A DNA stretch of 49,476 nt, taken from positions 1 through 49,476 of the forward strand of contig JBAXWE010000003.1 in the NCBI GenBank assembly GCA_037128565.1, in the 5' to 3' direction. Source of the DNA: a bacterium. GTDB lineage: Bacteria; Chloroflexota; Limnocylindria; Limnocylindrales; Limnocylindraceae. Within the stretch, counting starts at the first letter, position 1, and every line of letters begins with the position of its first letter. Below are positions 31,591 to 41,009 of the stretch, piece after piece. Made by a program: the position numbers and the translations under genes. Under the pieces are notes generated by a model, which was given only the letters and a program-made list of their open reading frames with translations, did not search any database and was not told the origin of the DNA.

Positions 31591-33330
31591 TTAAACCTCC
31601 ACCACCACAGGAACAACGAGTGGGCGACGTCTCGTCTCCTTGCCCAGGAACCGCGAAACCGATTCACTCAGCTGCGCCTTGATAAGGCCCACCTCTGCCC
31701 CGCGGTCGCCCTTGTGCTGGATTGCCTTCAGGGCGATGGTAATCGCCTCCTCAACGAGCTTGTTGTCCTCATCACCGTTGAGGAAGCCACGGGTGACGAG
31801 TGCCGGGCGACCAACGGGCTTACCGGTGCGTGCATCAACGGTGGCGATCACGACGACGATTCCGTCGTCAGCGAGCGTGCGTCGATCGCGCAGGACAATT
31901 TCACTGATCTCGCCAACGGACGATCCATCCACAAAGACAGATCCATGTTCGACCGGCTTACCACGTCGTGCGCTGCCGTCGGCAGAGAATTCAACCGGCG
32001 TGCCGTTGTCGATAATGAACACTGCGGATGGAGGCACTCCCATTTGTGTGGCAAGTCGGCCGTGGGCCACCTGCATGCGCATCTCGCCGTGCATCGGCAC
32101 GAAGTACTTTGGCTTGGTGAGCGCAAGCATCATCTTCAGCTCCTCTTGCGAGGCGTGGCCTGAAACGTGCACCTGCGCAATGGAGTGATAGATCACATTT
32201 GCGCCAGACTTGAAAAGATTATCGATTGTCCGGCCAACCGCCTCCTCATTTCCTGGGATTGGCGATGCCGAGACGATCACGGTGTCGCCGTTTTGAATCT
32301 CAACGTTGCGGTGTTCGCCGTTCGCCATCTTCGCGAGGCCTGCCATCGGCTCGCCCTGCGCACCGGTAGTGGCGATCACGAGTGGCTCTTTTGTACGGCG
32401 CGCGATCTCCTCTTTCGCAAGGAGTGGAGTTGGGAATTTCAGATAGCCAAGGTCGCGTGCAATCTTGACGTTCTGCTCCATTGAGCGACCGACAACAGCA
32501 ACCTTGCGGTGGAACTCCCCTGCCGCATCAAGCACCTGCTGAATGCGCGCGATATTCGAGGCGAAGGTCGCAATAATGACGCGGCCAGGTGCGGTGCTAA
32601 TGATCCCCTTGAACGCCTGGCCAACGACCTGTTCGCTCGGCGTGTAGCCGGGAGCCTCAGCGCGCGTGCTATCTGACACCAGTGCAAGCACGCCCTGTGC
32701 GCCAAACTTTGCAAGCATGGCGAAGTCTGCCGTCTTTCCGTCGGCTGGAGTCTGGTCAAACTTAAAGTCACCGGTGTGGATCACCGTTCCGACAGGTGAA
32801 TGGATTGCGTAGCCCATGGCATCTGGGATGGAGTGCCCGACGCGGAAGGCCTCAATGACGAACGGCCCAACCTCAAGTTTGCCGCCTGGATCGAGCGGGC
32901 GCAACGGGTTTGCGGTGACCTTGAACTCCTTCAGTTTGTTGGCGAGGAGCCCTCGTGCAAGGGTGCTGGCATAGACCGGTACACCGGGGAGCTCAGGGAG
33001 GATGTGCGGAAGTGCACCAACATGATCCTCGTGCCCGTGGGTGATCAGGACGGCCTTTACCGCGCTGCGGCGTGCGCGCAAGTAACTGATGTCAGGAATG
33101 ATGATGTCGACGCCAAGGGTGGTCTCGTCGGGGAAGGCGAGGCCGCAGTCAACGAGGATGATGGTGTCCTGGTACTCGTAGAGGTAGAGGTTCTTGCCGA
33201 TCTCCCCCATGCCGCCGAGCGGGATCAGGCGCAGTGCTGGGCCGCTGACAGCCGCCTTGTGGGGTCGGCGGGCCTCTTGGGGGTGCTTGGCCTCAGCTGG
33301 CCGGCGTGGTGGTTGCGGGCGTCGCGTCAT
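31591..33330 (-). CDS. rnj: Ribonuclease J
   Basis: PLGGMGEIGKN, THGHEDHVG, HTGDFK, GAQGEP, HVSGHA, PMHGE. Confidence 0.97.
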   Translation of the reverse strand: MTRRPQPPRRPAEAKHPQEARRPHKAAVSGPALRLIPLGGMGEIGKNLYLYEYQDTIILVDCGLAFPDETTLGVDIIIPDISYLRARRSAVKAVLITHGHEDHVGALPHILPELPGVPVYASTLARGLLANKLKEFKVTANPLRPLDPGGKLEVGPFVIEAFRVGHSIPDAMGYAIHSPVGTVIHTGDFKFDQTPADGKTADFAMLAKFGAQGVLALVSDSTRAEAPGYTPSEQVVGQAFKGIISTAPGRVIIATFASNIARIQQVLDAAGEFHRKVAVVGRSMEQNVKIARDLGYLKFPTPLLAKEEIARRTKEPLVIATTGAQGEPMAGLAKMANGEHRNVEIQNGDTVIVSASPIPGNEEAVGRTIDNLFKSGANVIYHSIAQVHVSGHASQEELKMMLALTKPKYFVPMHGEMRMQVAHGRLATQMGVPPSAVFIIDNGTPVEFSADGSARRGKPVEHGSVFVDGSSVGEISEIVLRDRRTLADDGIVVVIATVDARTGKPVGRPALVTRGFLNGDEDNKLVEEAITIALKAIQHKGDRGAEVGLIKAQLSESVSRFLGKETRRRPLVVPVVVEV

Positions 33331-35113: not shown

Positions 35114-37711
35114 TTACTCCTGTGGCGCGGCCTTATGACGCTGCATGGCGGCGCGGCGCGACAGGTTCACCCGACCCTGGCGGTCAACTTCAGTGACCAC
35201 AACCATGATCTCGTCGCCAACGGCAACCTCATCCTCGACGGTGTTCACACGGTAGTCCGCGAGCTCGCCGATACGTACGAGGCCTTCCTTGCCTGGAAGG
35301 ATCTCAACGAAGCAGCCGAAGCCCATGATGCGGGTGACCTTGCCCATGTAGAGCGCACCGAGCTCAACCTCTTTGGTGATCCCATTAATCGCATCAAGGA
35401 CGCCCTTGGTGCGTTCTGGATCAGCCGACGCGATCTGTACGGTGCCGTCGTCCTGCACATTGATGTTGACCTGGAAGTCATCCTGCAGCTTGCGAATGAC
35501 TGCGCCACCCTTACCAATGATGTCGCGGATCTTCTCCGGATTAATCTTGATCGTGGTGATGCGTGGTGCGAAGTCAGAGAGCTCAGGACGAGCCGTGCTG
35601 ATGATCGCATCCATCTTGTCGAGGATCTCGAGGCGCGCAGCGAGCGCATCCTTGAGGCCGGTGCGAATGATCGCCCCGTTAATCCCCTGCACCTTGATGT
35701 CCATCTGCAAGGCGGTGATCCCTGTGCGGGTTCCCGTCACCTTGAAGTCCATGTCGCCGAAGGCATCCTCTTTGCCGAGGATGTCGGTGAGGACGATGAA
35801 CTCGCCATCTGGCTCCGACATCAGGCCCATTGCAGCACCAGCTACTGACGCCTTGAGCGGCACACCGGCATCAAGGAGTGAGAGGCTCGAACCGCAGGTT
35901 GAGGCCATTGAGGTCGATCCGTTGGAGGTCACGCACTCTGAGACGACTCGGATGGCGTATGGGAACTCCTCGATCGATGGGAGCACTGGGATCAGTGCGC
36001 GCTCGGCAAGGGCTCCGTGCCCAATCTCGCGTCGCCCTGGGCCACGCATCGGCTTGTTCTCGCCGGTGCTGTACGGCGGCATGTTGTAGTGGTGGATGTA
36101 GCGCTTCTCAGTGATCGGCGAGATCGTGTCGAGACGCTGCCCCTGTGCCACTGGGCCAAGGGTGGCCACGCTCAACGCCTGCGTCTCACCGCGGGTGAAG
36201 AGGCCTGAGCCGTGTGCGCGTGGGAGCAGACCAACCTCTACAGAGATCTTGCGGATCTCATCAACCTTACGGCCGTCGAGGCGAATCCCCTCCTTCATCG
36301 TCAGGCTACGCGCGGTTTTCTTATGCATCCAACCGAAGAGGTTCTTTCCAACACGCGCCTTGCGGCGTGCTGCTTCAAAGATTGCCTTCGGCTCGCCCTT
36401 GCCACTGCGTGCGGCACGGATAGAATCGGCAATCCCCTCCTTGAGCGTCGCGAGGCGACCCGGGAGTTCGTTGGCGAGGAGTAGCAAGAGCTCAGCTGTT
36501 GCTTCAGCGTCAGCTGCGGCTCGATGGTTCGGAGTTGTCGCTGCGCCGTAAACACGGGCGAGATCTCCGAGCTTGAACGATTCGCTCTCTGGGTACGCCT
36601 CCTTGAAGAGGACGTAGGTGTCAAGATAGCTGCCCTGCTCGGTCGCGAAGGTGCGACCCTTGCCGAGCGCCTCGTCGAGGAACGCGACGTCAAAGCCAAG
36701 GTTGTGTCCAACAAGGATTGCGCCCTTGGCGAATTCAGCAATCTTCTCGGCTGCTGCCTTCGGCGTGAGCCCGCCCTTGATGTCCTTGTTCGTGATGCCG
36801 TGCATCTGGGCGCCAACGATGCCATTGCCGGCGTCAACAAAGCTGCTCCAGCGGTCGGTGATCTTGCCACCCTTGACCTTCACTGCGGCGACTTCGACAA
36901 GATCCGAAATCTTTGGATCGAGACCGGTTGTCTCAGTGTCAACGATCACAAAGGTGCCGCCGTTCGCGGCCGCCTCGGCAAAGGCAAGCACGCTGTCGGT
37001 GCTTGGCTCGATGTACGGAACGCGCTTCTCCTTGCCAACTTTGGCGCGCAGCTCCTCCTGGAGGGCAACGAGCGCCTTGATGGCGCCGTGTCCGAACTCA
37101 ATGGCTTCAGCCATCTTGTCTTCAGTAATCAGGTTGGCGCCGGCCTCGACCATCATGATCGCGCTGACTGTTCCTGAGACCACCAAATCGAGATCACTCT
37201 CCTTGAGCTGTTCGAAGGTTGGGTTGATCACAAAGGCACCGTTGACGATGCCGACGCGGACTGCGCCGATTGGCCCAAGGAACGGAATCTCAGAGATCGT
37301 CAGCGCCGCAGAGGCGGCGAGCGTTCCGAGAATATCTGGGTCGTTCTCCTGGTCCGCGCTCAGCACGGTGATCACAACCTGCACGTCGTCCTTGTACCCC
37401 TCTGGGAAGAGTGGTCGAATCGGTCGGTCGGTGAGACGAGCGGAGAGCGTTGCGTTCTCGGAGGCTCGCCCTTCGCGCTTGATGTATCCGCCTGGAATCT
37501 TCCCTGCGGCGTACATGCGCTCTTCGAATTCAATCGTGAGGGGGAAGAAGTCGAGACCTGGTCGTGGCTCGCTGCGGTTTGCAGTGCCAAGGACCACGGT
37601 GTCGCCGTAGCGAACGGTGACTGCACCGCCGGCGAGGCGGGCCATTCGGCCTGTCTCAATCGTGAGGGTCTGACCGCCGAACTCGGCGGATACGCTGGTG
37701 ATGTTGCTCAT
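35114..37711 (-). CDS. pnp: Polyribonucleotide nucleotidyltransferase with an inserted DEDDh 3'-5' exonuclease domain
   Basis: PH1 (DFFPLT, AGKIPGG, DRPIRPLF), PH2 (RREIGHG, SNGSTSMAS, DAFGDMDFK), KH (IIGKGG) and S1. Insert at about aa 252-413 carries DTETTG, GHNLGFD and HRAAAD. Confidence 0.97.
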   Translation of the reverse strand: MSNITSVSAEFGGQTLTIETGRMARLAGGAVTVRYGDTVVLGTANRSEPRPGLDFFPLTIEFEERMYAAGKIPGGYIKREGRASENATLSARLTDRPIRPLFPEGYKDDVQVVITVLSADQENDPDILGTLAASAALTISEIPFLGPIGAVRVGIVNGAFVINPTFEQLKESDLDLVVSGTVSAIMMVEAGANLITEDKMAEAIEFGHGAIKALVALQEELRAKVGKEKRVPYIEPSTDSVLAFAEAAANGGTFVIVDTETTGLDPKISDLVEVAAVKVKGGKITDRWSSFVDAGNGIVGAQMHGITNKDIKGGLTPKAAAEKIAEFAKGAILVGHNLGFDVAFLDEALGKGRTFATEQGSYLDTYVLFKEAYPESESFKLGDLARVYGAATTPNHRAAADAEATAELLLLLANELPGRLATLKEGIADSIRAARSGKGEPKAIFEAARRKARVGKNLFGWMHKKTARSLTMKEGIRLDGRKVDEIRKISVEVGLLPRAHGSGLFTRGETQALSVATLGPVAQGQRLDTISPITEKRYIHHYNMPPYSTGENKPMRGPGRREIGHGALAERALIPVLPSIEEFPYAIRVVSECVTSNGSTSMASTCGSSLSLLDAGVPLKASVAGAAMGLMSEPDGEFIVLTDILGKEDAFGDMDFKVTGTRTGITALQMDIKVQGINGAIIRTGLKDALAARLEILDKMDAIISTARPELSDFAPRITTIKINPEKIRDIIGKGGAVIRKLQDDFQVNINVQDDGTVQIASADPERTKGVLDAINGITKEVELGALYMGKVTRIMGFGCFVEILPGKEGLVRIGELADYRVNTVEDEVAVGDEIMVVVTEVDRQGRVNLSRRAAMQRHKAAPQE

Positions 37712-37787
37712 TCTGTTCTCCTGTCAGGCCGCTGGCGGTTCTTCCGTCAGCGTGCCGATGTAGTCCCAGCCAGAGGCTGGGGGGTGG

Positions 37788-38057
37788 TTAGCGACGAAGT
37801 CCGAGCTTCTCGGAGAGCGCGGCGTAGCGCGCTGCATCTTCACGCTTAAGAAATGTCAGCAGTCGACGTCGCTGACCGACGAGCTTCAAGAGCCCGCGGC
37901 GCGAGTGGTTGTCCTGCTTAAAGGTTTGCAGGTGCGACGTCAGTCCCTGAATGCGCTCCGTCAGGAGTGCGATCTGGACATCGGCAGACCCGGTGTCAGT
38001 ACCGTGACGCCCGTTTTCGGCAACGATGCGTGCGGTGGTTTCTTGGTCTAGTGGCAA
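37788..38057 (-). CDS. rpsO: 30S ribosomal protein S15
   Basis: [41 protein letters not shown] start at 38057 after SD AAGGAG gives 89 aa. Confidence 0.97.
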
Positions 38058-38141: not shown

Positions 38142-38978
38142 TTACGCCTGGAGGCTCCCTCCAAGCAGGGCGACCCGTATCGGACCCCCCTCGAAGCGTC
38201 GATCTGCGGGATCTGGTCGCACGAGCGTGATGGTCAGCCCATCCGCGTTGAGGCGCACCGTGGTGAGCCGTCCCACAAGGGGGAGGCGTCCCTCCGGGCG
38301 CCCAGCCACCCCAACGCGAGCCCGGTACTCCCCTGGGGGTGGGACCGCCGCCCCTTTGGGCTGAAGGCGCACCTGGTCCCCCTGAAGGGTGCCGACCAGG
38401 GCATACGGGCGGCCGAGGAGGCGCGCCGCCCCGGTGAGATCCCCGTCCGCGATGGCCTCCCTGATACGGGTACTTCGAATGGGGGCTCCCCCAGCGGTTG
38501 CCTCAGCCACTGGGTAGACCTGCAGCCCATGGGCGGCACCCCAGGCGCGGACGTTGGGCAGTGTCCCCTGGCGTCCCTGACCGAAGGCAGATTCTGGTGA
38601 GAGGACGATGCTCCTCGCCGCCGTCACCCCAACCAGACGCTCAGTGAAGCCCTCCCAGGGGGTGTCGCGCAACTGCGGCGTGAATGGGAGGTCGCACCAG
38701 AGGTCGACACCCGCCCCTGCCATTCGCAACTCAAGCTCACCCGCATCAAGGAGCTGTAGGGGGGTTACACCCCGAATCAGCTGGTCGGGGTGTGGGGTGA
38801 AGCCGATATGTACGCGCAGGAGTCCCGCTGCTCGGGCAAGTCGCTCAGCAGCGGCAAGCAGGCGCACATGTCCACGGTGCAGCCCATCAAACACCCCGAG
38901 TGTCAGCACTGATCCAAGCGGGGCATCCGCCGCGGCCATCTCCGCTGCTAACTCGTCCCATCCGAGTGCTCGCTTCAC
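38142..38978 (-). CDS. ribF: RibF-like FAD synthetase (FMN adenylyltransferase intact, riboflavin-kinase half degenerate)
   Basis: LGVFDGLHRGH, FTPHP, FGQGRQG, IRSTRIR...LLGRPY, in truB-ribF-rpsO order. The C-terminal kinase motifs are absent. Confidence 0.8.
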   Translation of the reverse strand: MKRALGWDELAAEMAAADAPLGSVLTLGVFDGLHRGHVRLLAAAERLARAAGLLRVHIGFTPHPDQLIRGVTPLQLLDAGELELRMAGAGVDLWCDLPFTPQLRDTPWEGFTERLVGVTAARSIVLSPESAFGQGRQGTLPNVRAWGAAHGLQVYPVAEATAGGAPIRSTRIREAIADGDLTGAARLLGRPYALVGTLQGDQVRLQPKGAAVPPPGEYRARVGVAGRPEGRLPLVGRLTTVRLNADGLTITLVRPDPADRRFEGGPIRVALLGGSLQA

Positions 38979-39941: not shown

Positions 39942-41009
39942 TCAGCCCACGACAGATTGCGCGCGAAGCTCCGCCACGCGCGCCAGCACCAGGGTGACCA
40001 CTTCGCTCACGGGGAGCTCGATCGTCGCGCCCGCGGCACGCGCATGACCGCCGCCGCCGAAAGAGCCAACGATGGCAGTGGCATCAGGACCCTCCCCCTT
40101 CGTGCGCACCGAGATGCGCGACGAGGTCGGGCCGTCCTCTTTAAAGAAGATTGCAACATCAGCTTCCGATACATGGGCCAATGAATCCACGATCCCTTCG
40201 CTCATCTCAAGCGTTGCACCAACTTCGGCCAGGTCCGCAAGCATCATTGTCGCAAACACCGTGTTGCCATGATCGGAGGTGTTCAAGCTTGCCAAGACGC
40301 GCGCGTGGAGCTGTACTTGCGCGAGCGGCTTCGAGCGATAGATCTTTCGTGAGATCTCGCTAATTGGTGCACCAGCGACCAGCAATAGCCCGCCCACTTC
40401 GAGTGTTCGTGCGGTCGTGTTGCCGTGCTGGAAGGTAGCCGTGTCCATGATCACACCCGCGGCGAGCGTTGCAGCAAGATCCCCTTGGTCCGCGGAGAGA
40501 TCAGCCTTGAGCGCGAGCGCAATCAGGCTGACCATTTCGCAGGTCGCCGCAGCATGGGCGTCAACCCAGGCGAGCGGCCAAGTCGAATCGTTGGAAACAT
40601 GGTGATCAATGAGGATGCGTGGCGTGGAGGCTGGCAGCGCATTGATCAGGTCACCAATACGGCCGGCTCGTTTAGGATCGGCGCAATCTACCAACACAAT
40701 GGCATCAGGCGACCAGTTGGGCGCCTCAAGGACAACATCGCCGATTGTTGGAATAACGTCATAGACCGCTGGCGGAGCGTCTGCGCTGATCACGGCGACC
40801 TCCGCGCCGAACTGGCCAAGGATCGCCTTGAGCCCGAGGGCCGCACCGAGAGCATCAGCATCGGGGCGTTCGTGTGGTACAACCCACAGCCTCGTTGCTG
40901 AACGAAGTGCCTCCAGCACGTTGGCAGGGACAGCAGCGAGCGCCGATGCCCGAAGTGTATCTGCACGCTGCAGGTACTCCGCTGCGTGCACGATCCCCTG
41001 CTCGCTCAT
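39942..41009 (-). CDS. nrnA: DHH/DHHA1 phosphoesterase (NrnA-like nanoRNase/pAp phosphatase)
   Basis: HERPDADALG, IDHH, DTATF, GGGGHARAAG; located between rbfA and truB. Confidence 0.9.
   Translation of the reverse strand: MSEQGIVHAAEYLQRADTLRASALAAVPANVLEALRSATRLWVVPHERPDADALGAALGLKAILGQFGAEVAVISADAPPAVYDVIPTIGDVVLEAPNWSPDAIVLVDCADPKRAGRIGDLINALPASTPRILIDHHVSNDSTWPLAWVDAHAAATCEMVSLIALALKADLSADQGDLAATLAAGVIMDTATFQHGNTTARTLEVGGLLLVAGAPISEISRKIYRSKPLAQVQLHARVLASLNTSDHGNTVFATMMLADLAEVGATLEMSEGIVDSLAHVSEADVAIFFKEDGPTSSRISVRTKGEGPDATAIVGSFGGGGHARAAGATIELPVSEVVTLVLARVAELRAQSVVG

Follow-up and report, generated by a model that had tools for sequence, protein, structure and literature searches.

A polynucleotide phosphorylase carrying an inserted DEDDh exonuclease domain in three families of the Chloroflexota class Limnocylindria

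The polynucleotide phosphorylases (PNPases) of E. coli, Caulobacter and S. antibioticus share a canonical order of parts: a first RNase PH-like core (PH1), an all-alpha linker, a second such core (PH2), a KH domain and an S1 domain, with a phosphorolytic site. The subject of this report is the pnp gene found in a 49,476-nucleotide stretch of contig JBAXWE010000003.1 (the whole of which is called the window) from Candidatus Limnocylindrus, also filed as Candidatus Aquidulcis, in the Chloroflexota class Limnocylindria. The predicted 865-aa product has the canonical order and phosphorolytic site, and the rpsO-pnp gene context is common to Limnocylindrus and the canonical bacterial enzyme. It differs from canonical PNPase in that a 160-aa catalytic domain of the DEDDh 3'-5' exonuclease type lies within the linker.

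Relatives of this domain have been described in several other settings. The closest in sequence is the PolC exonuclease, which also sits as an insert, within the PHP domain of PolC, and has its two ends close together. The host of the PolC domain is a template-dependent DNA polymerase, for which it proofreads, whereas the present host is an RNA exonuclease that works by phosphorolysis and a polymerase that needs no template. ExoDinG (PDB 8zef) has a domain of the same DEDDh subfamily and places an exo(ribo)nuclease on a nucleic-acid motor; there the exonuclease is N-terminal and its partner is an SF2 helicase, whereas in the PNPase it is internal. Orn, REXO2 and RNase T share the DEDDh fold and catalytic pentad with the insert and act downstream of PNPase in RNA decay, but they are free-standing dimers rather than embedded domains. 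The exosome with Rrp44 and Rrp6, and the Caulobacter degradosome, in which PMC4245959 places RNase D, couple a ring of PH domains to a hydrolytic 3'-5' exonuclease, as the present protein would, and Rrp6 and RNase D belong with the insert to the DEDD superfamily. There the nuclease forms a subunit of its own and the exosome ring has no catalytic activity, whereas here the nuclease is covalently joined and would be present three times per ring, on a ring that would still be phosphorolytic. The likeness is one of design and not of assembly homology. The preliminary description of the window, made from the sequence and its translations, regarded the architecture as undescribed. This agrees with the full-text literature searched (subscription journals and supplementary files being outside its reach), in which no PNPase carrying an exonuclease insert was described; the available sections of a review of DinG-like proteins (PMC11981726) make no mention of PNPase.

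The inserted domain and its host protein

The pnp gene is a single uninterrupted open reading frame, and the long frames on the opposite strand are shadow frames of the kind usual in a gene of 60% GC. The product matched the NCBIfam PNPase equivalog TIGR03591 with 916.3 bits (cut-off 525) in two stretches that flank the insert. Pfam RNase_PH was likewise found in two stretches of the 865-aa protein (E 1.4e-50). Pfam and Foldseek comparison to solved PNPases both recognized the pair of RNase PH-like cores with KH and S1 after them. Between the two cores, RNase_T (PF00929) matched aa 255-409 with 90.6 bits (cut-off 24) over profile positions 1-164 of 164, the match that the preliminary description had predicted for a complete, in-frame DEDDh 3'-5' exonuclease in the PNPase helical domain. 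That description had placed the insert at 36473-36958, which corresponds to aa 252-413. Its residue numbers proved correct upon alignment: the ExoI D-x-E, ExoII D and ExoIII H-x4-D elements are all present, as FVIVDTETTG with D258 and E260, GHNLGFD with D341, and NHRAAAD with H396 and D401. Its statement that the PNPase motifs and the KH and S1 domains are intact was also borne out by Pfam matches and conservation. No compositional seam is seen at the insert, which has a GC content of 0.60 against 0.58-0.64 for segments overlapping the remainder of the gene.

When the insert alone was compared with NCBIfam, the best models were the PolC-type exonuclease NF001688 (E 2e-35), the DEDD exonuclease PRK07883 and the ExoDinG exonuclease NF005981 (E 2.4e-33). 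By sequence, the closest solved structures were PolC (9qpc, 2p1j), DinG (8zef), Cas2-DEDDh and DnaQ. No Orn or RNase T model was present among the best 25 of 60 NCBIfam matches of the whole protein or the best 25 of 32 of the insert. The DnaQ epsilon equivalog TIGR01406 scored 61-65 bits, below its cut-off of 222.7, and the insert is embedded and has no free C-terminal tail. Since Pfam detects no helicase domain in the 865-aa protein, it is not an ExoDinG.

The catalytic residues of both parts are strongly conserved. The DEDDh pentad is intact in 33 of 33 aligned fusions; among 120 protein clusters, D341, H396 and D401 are kept in all 120, and D258 and E260 in 119 each. The PH2 residues S599, S601, D649, D655 and K657, which we take to be catalytic in PNPase, are kept in 116-117 of the 120 clusters, the rest being gaps except for one R at S601. 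The NGSxSMAS and D649/D655/K657 columns are invariant among the aligned fusions. The ratio of non-synonymous to synonymous substitution rates (dN/dS; median pairwise value for 17 sequences of the genus) was 0.086 for the insert and 0.097 for the linker flanks, compared to 0.047 for PH1, 0.053 for PH2 and 0.020 for KH-S1. The window protein has 38% identity in the insert with proteins of another fusion-bearing family (f4, below) versus 63-74% in the PH cores. These comparisons show an insert that evolves faster than the cores yet is clearly constrained, under purifying selection. It is very probable that the insert is a real, clade-wide and catalytically competent domain.

An artefact of assembly or of gene calling had to be considered, as the window comes from a metagenome-assembled genome in 85 contigs and some database entries of this PNPase family are frameshifted fragments. 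Within the genus, the fusion was present in 22 of 24 genomes, the two lacking it being 61-62% complete, and in a second family it was present in 16/16 genomes of the same (genus-level search) sample. The same uninterrupted frame was found in more than 100 genomes, including contigs of 2.2-2.7 Mb. Moreover, each of two further lake metagenomes yielded Logan contigs that run across both junctions (near 36475 and 36955): those of one lake-water DNA run cover 36148-37800 with no differences from the window, and those of the other cover 35513-37627 with 6 differences. The chimeric assembly that the preliminary description had allowed for is thus not borne out, and related genomes carry the fusion in both the genus and the class samples. 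With a frame free of stops and of uniform composition as well, an artefact is exceedingly improbable. River metatranscriptome contigs that are 91-93% identical cover 36099-36596 and 36567-37085, each bridging one junction; coming from an RNA library, they are only a hint of pnp expression, as DNA carry-over is possible. Stretches of the gene left uncovered in RNA run X19 were given no weight. Joints in the contig comparison that might have represented deletions of the insert had sides of 20-29 letters at 90% likeness and were taken for conserved stretches of PNPase from other organisms. Six fusion variants that looked degenerate (P0160, P0165, P0162, P0146, P0126 and P0122) were frameshifted gene calls with R/P/A-rich out-of-frame runs and were dropped.

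The domain appears to have been added to the linker with no part of the linker removed. The distance from the GK.K anchor (aa 229) to the LDGR anchor (aa 479) is 246-253 aa in 33/33 fusion proteins and 86-87 aa in the four insert-free PNPases of sister families for which it was determined (4/4). The net gain of about 163 aa is the size of one DEDDh domain. When compared to the canonical PNPase linker using hhalign, profile similarity was found at the two ends alone (aa 200-231 and 457-500), with aa 457 onward aligning to the last canonical helix (probability 99.5). No homology to the canonical helical domain was recovered by hhalign for the middle linker helices, which agree with it in total length alone. 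Thus the earlier claim of insertion rather than replacement holds for the anchor-to-anchor length, while homology of the flanks to the canonical linker extends to the two ends.

An AlphaFold2 model of the monomer, built from 37 sequences, had a mean predicted local distance difference test score (pLDDT) of 80.6 and a predicted template modelling score of 0.73. Within the insert, pLDDT was mostly 84-94 per 10-residue block, with dips at about aa 291-310 (81, 73), 351-360 (57) and 391-400 (72). In the model, a single linker helix (238-249) precedes the exonuclease domain, and the final exonuclease helix runs without a break from aa 398 to 436 into the linker bundle, followed by helices 441-452 and 456-474. 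Foldseek matched the model to solved PNPases with E values down to 5e-67 and 30-40% identity; the chains listed were ordinary PNPases alone, of 482-730 aa, none with an insert. According to PMC2723993, the helical domain of E. coli PNPase lies on the face of the torus opposite S1/KH and contributes to a pore; this opens a second way to the active site, presumed to be for nucleoside diphosphates and phosphate. By analogy, the DEDDh sites on the trimer would face away from the RNA entry.

Distribution and origin of the fusion

Within class Limnocylindria, the fusion was found in three families, designated f1 (that of the window), f2 and f4; the sister families f3 and f5 have an ordinary PNPase. 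A class-wide sample of 151 genomes was searched with aa 205-500 as the query. Full-length matches were obtained for 6/6 genomes of f1, 44/44 of f2 and 48/50 of f4. In the two remaining f4 genomes, one match was cut by a contig end, and one 92%-complete assembly had no PNPase at all. These tallies include unpublished genomes (G117, G108, G144, G112, G127, G133 and G088), and the pattern does not depend on them. For f3 and f5, the best matches to the query were the N-terminal exonuclease domains of DinG helicases (4/4 inspected), and the PNPases matched the profile unbroken in 4/4. In a phylum-wide sample of 401 Chloroflexota genomes (E<=1e-25), the fusion was present in f1 (4/4), f2 (23/23) and f4 (16/16) and in none of the 357 other genomes. 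All 37 PNPases inspected from other Chloroflexota classes (that of unpublished genome G206 included) were uninterrupted. According to the genome records, the fusion-bearing families include lake plankton and soil genomes.

Broader searches gave the same picture. An exhaustive phmmer search of 1.84 billion protein representatives, with 36 matches at E<=1e-30, found no fusion outside the Limnocylindria clade. There was one full-length fusion representative, P0013 (a 50%-identity cluster), and most of the other matches were fragments of fusions; the exceptions include P0151, which by length and position of the match is a PolC, and P0152, with three DEDDh copies. Among the top 150 proteins, ten others that match DEDDh in mid-protein were inspected, and PNPase domains were present in none; considered as further fusions, they were rejected as UvrD-like helicases, PolC fragments, a VRR-NUC fusion and similar proteins. 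The UvrD-like helicases P0185, P0230 and P0250 have an RNase_T/DEDDh domain inside UvrD_C and so, like PolC, contain an exonuclease of this type as an insert; the three form a group on the domain tree (SH-like approximate likelihood ratio test, SH-aLRT, 94). A word-index search yielded 475 proteins at E<=1e-5, and the best 120 of these all have both PF00929 and PF01138. Their public names are inconsistent, being either PNPase or 'DNA polymerase III epsilon subunit family exonuclease'. For all ESM Atlas clusters that combine RNase_PH and RNase_T, Chloroflexota are listed as the commonest source.

A tree of the PNPase core was made from 38 of 66 sequences (alternate rows of f2, f4 and the outgroup), leaving out the columns of the insert; P-numbered proteins were placed in f1 or f2 by similarity. 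The fusion bearers formed one clade (SH-aLRT 100), arranged (f4,(f1,f2)) with f3+f5 as its sister (100), implying that the insertion occurred once. On a tree of DEDDh domains the inserts were also monophyletic (support 98), together with one free-standing relative, P0163. This 273-aa DEDDh protein has 40% identity and shares the helix after ExoIII; to judge from its place on the tree, it could be a product of a donor-like lineage or an excised copy. The insert was not sister to the exonuclease domain of the ExoDinG resident in the class. A joint clade of the two, a grouping chosen after the tree was seen, was not rejected by the approximately unbiased (AU) test (p 0.443, lnL difference 3.5). 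As regards an origin of the insert from the resident ExoDinG, then, the tree separates the two and the AU test permits a joint clade, so either history fits.

The distributions of ExoDinG and of the insert are complementary in the class. An ExoDinG helicase query matched 19/19 genomes of f3 and 1/1 of f5 (an example is locus L095:385-3063, minus strand). In the fusion clade it matched neither the genome of the window nor any of 3 f1 and 17 f2 genomes, and in f4 it matched 1 of 20, an 81-residue fragment at a contig end. That fragment aside, ExoDinG is confined to f3/f5 and the PNPase insert to f1/f2/f4. Elsewhere in the phylum, ExoDinG is common (matches in 63 of 101 genomes), so loss is the simplest reading of its absence from the fusion clade. 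Most genomes of the class have a single strong RNase_T-family domain, which in f3/f5 is located on ExoDinG. In f2 and f4 the PNPase insert is usually the sole such domain of the genome, exactly one being present in 24 of the 36 genomes with a match.

Gene neighbourhood and ribonuclease repertoire

The genome that contains the window is of 1.15 Mb and 90.8% complete. The pnp gene lies in a string of genes, all on the minus strand, in the order nusA, infB, rbfA, a gene for an NrnA-like DHH protein, truB, ribF, rpsO, pnp and asd, where truB and rpsO were named by eye from their translations. The NrnA-like gene, between rbfA and truB, is 2.2 kb upstream of pnp; as the NF053633 score of its predicted product is far below the cut-off, the nanoRNase identity is only a lead. 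The ribF homologue (38142-38978, minus strand) matches the FAD-synthetase (N-terminal) part alone, at profile positions of about 1-200 of 290-326, with scores of 71-114 bits that are well below the cut-offs for bifunctional RibF. Coordinates of the pnp gene, its parts and other ribonuclease genes in the window are given in Table 1.

Table 1. Positions of pnp, its predicted parts and other putative ribonuclease genes in the window
Feature	Position	Strand	Basis
pnp, 865-aa PNPase with inserted DEDDh domain	35114..37711	-	ORF; TIGR03591 916 bits; Pfam domains
First RNase PH-like core, aa 1-225 (RNase_PH_C aa 146-209 within)	37037..37711	-	Pfam; many invariant columns
All-alpha linker, N-terminal flank, aa 226-252 (modelled helix 238-249)	36956..37036	-	AlphaFold2 secondary structure; hhalign
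Inserted DEDDh (DnaQ/PolC-exo type) 3'-5' exonuclease domain, aa 253-412	36476..36955	-	PF00929 E 2.2e-25; PolC/DinG exonuclease best matches
ExoI codons D258-T259-E260	36932..36940	-	Alignment; conserved in protein clusters
ExoII codon D341, pattern H-N/S-x-x-F-D	36689..36691	-	Conserved in protein clusters
ExoIII codons H396 to D401 (H-x4-D)	36509..36526	-	Conserved in protein clusters
All-alpha linker, C-terminal flank, aa 413-474	36290..36475	-	AlphaFold2 DSSP; hhalign
Second RNase PH-like core, phosphorolytic site, aa 475-705	35597..36289	-	Pfam RNase_PH 485-618
KH domain, aa 716-775	35387..35566	-	Pfam KH_1 aa 719-775, E 2.7e-9
S1 domain, aa 782-853	35153..35368	-	Pfam S1 E 5.9e-16
NrnA-like DHH protein, candidate nanoRNase	39942..41009	-	NF053633 96.6 bits, below cut-off 350; PF01368 match
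RNase J	31603-33231		In the window
RNase Y	from 20373		In the window

The genome encodes RNase PH, RNase J and RNase Y, and searches gave no match in it to RNase E/G or to DEDDy (RNase D-like) enzymes. The RNB domain of RNase II/R was found in none of the 61 class genomes that are at least 90% complete, which represent all five families, against matches in 11 of 14 control genomes. As RNB is missing in all five families alike, the idea that loss of RNase II/R tracks the insert was rejected, and this loss is context only. DHH proteins (RecJ and NrnA-like proteins of about 350 aa) were present in 101/101 class genomes, with or without the insert, and need of a stand-in for a missing nanoRNase was for this reason rejected as the driver of the insertion. 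The preliminary description had asked whether the genome has a separate dnaQ, orn or rnt. There is one more DEDDh protein, a divergent stand-alone protein of 181 aa on a very long branch (locus L002, contig C38:1367-1912, plus strand), which was seen in 4/4 sampled genomes of the genus; none of the Orn, RNase T or epsilon equivalogs scored above cut-off for it.

Possible functions of the fused enzyme

On balance we favor the reading that this is a housekeeping PNPase into which a DEDDh domain was inserted once, and which acts as a dual phosphorolytic and hydrolytic 3'-end nuclease. A domain of the DnaQ/PolC-exo/DinG-exo type would have entered the linker, after its first helix, in the common ancestor of the three families. 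The PNPase trimer would then carry three hydrolytic, phosphate-independent exonuclease sites on a phosphorolytic ring, and hence would be a dual 3'-end nuclease; these sites would lie opposite the KH/S1 entry face, beside the helical-domain pore that leads to the phosphorolytic site. The likeliest substrates would be single-stranded RNA 3' ends, for example in the decay or quality control of unprocessed rRNA, of tails or of limit products. Besides the nanoRNase candidates, the insert would supply the sole hydrolytic 3' exoribonuclease activity in a class lacking RNase II/R, and it may cover the exonuclease role that ExoDinG holds in the sister families. RNA is favored because all RNA-handling parts and the gene context are retained in such a class, although the chances that it is the main substrate appear to us about evenly balanced. 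According to PMC12774634, Listeria DinG, which is of the ExoDinG type, is a 3'-5' exoribonuclease that removes unprocessed rRNA, and PMC12525004 reports that B. subtilis DinG, of the same type, degrades single-stranded DNA and the RNA strand of hybrids. With these activities known, a functional overlap between ExoDinG and the insert is plausible; that the insert functionally replaces ExoDinG is possible but doubtful.

Several observations weigh against the reading of a dual nuclease that takes over from ExoDinG. The complementarity between ExoDinG and the insert corresponds to one branch of the tree, and therefore amounts to one event and not a statistic. ExoDinG was also unmatched in at least five further Chloroflexota families whose PNPases are ordinary (f8, f13, f17, f18 and f21). 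Nor is the insert sister to the resident ExoDinG exonuclease domain, even though the joint grouping survives the AU test. Families f3 and f5 also lack RNase II/R and cope without an insert. Where the exonuclease sites would lie with respect to the channel is deduced from the known place of the helical domain. Finally, the nearest relatives of the insert (the PolC and DinG exonucleases, DnaQ and Cas2-DEDDh) are mostly DNA-directed, which makes DNA a serious possibility as the substrate.

Bacterial PNPases have a part in DNA repair, and the most substantial alternative is that the insert gives the enzyme a function at DNA ends or in R-loops. In its favor are the best family and structure matches (PolC exonuclease, PRK07883 and DinG), the fact that the insert is usually the only RNase_T-family domain of f2/f4 genomes, the absence of ExoDinG from exactly the fusion clade, and the preference of B. 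subtilis ExoDinG for single-stranded DNA together with its removal of R-loops (PMC12525004). However, the host protein retains KH, S1 and both PH cores in an RNA-metabolism gene context with no repair genes nearby, and since the Listeria ExoDinG acts on rRNA (PMC12774634), a link to DinG need not mean DNA. We regard this alternative as unlikely, though it should be kept in view. It is quite improbable that the insert is a dedicated nanoRNase that hydrolyses the 2-5 nucleotide limit products of PNPase, as the DEDDh enzymes Orn and REXO2 do elsewhere. The pore bordered by the helical domain, thought to exchange small molecules with the active site (PMC2723993), would suit such a role. Against it, the NrnA-like proteins are universal in the class, one being encoded close to pnp here, which makes a pure nanoRNase role less likely; the insert, moreover, clusters with the PolC/DinG-exo type and had no Orn or RNase T model among the best matches described above. 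The suggestion in the preliminary description that the domain finishes short RNA products is weakened on the same grounds. Least probable of these is a catalytically silent insert that serves as a nucleic-acid-binding or regulatory module. Inactive exonuclease-like domains do occur in other fusions, such as pExoDinG (PMC11981726), but here each of the five catalytic residues is kept in 119-120 of 120 clusters over about 40% sequence divergence, and the dN/dS of the insert is low.

A more elaborate form of the dual-nuclease reading, which we consider improbable, is that the protein is a bacterial equivalent, in one polypeptide, of the exosome-Rrp44 design. From its entry at the KH/S1 face, RNA would pass through the PH ring, and its 3' end would reach either the phosphorolytic sites or, by way of the far opening or the helical-domain pore, the three DEDDh sites, each held on a rigid helix. 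If so, there would be processive phosphate-independent decay in a class that lacks RNase II/R. The place of Rrp44 on the exosome resembles the helical-domain face more than that of Rrp6 does. The analogy to Rrp6 drawn in the preliminary description stands as a loose comparison.

The domain layout of PNPase is among the most conserved and best studied in RNA biology, and here it has acquired a second catalytic center of a different chemistry that three families have kept since their common ancestor. Should the insert be active, this would be a covalent version of the pairing of a PH ring with a hydrolytic exonuclease, which eukaryotes build from separate exosome subunits and Caulobacter by recruiting RNase D. 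The fusion offers a simple test system for the division between phosphorolysis and hydrolysis at RNA 3' ends, and it bears on the cellular role of the ExoDinG-type exonuclease.

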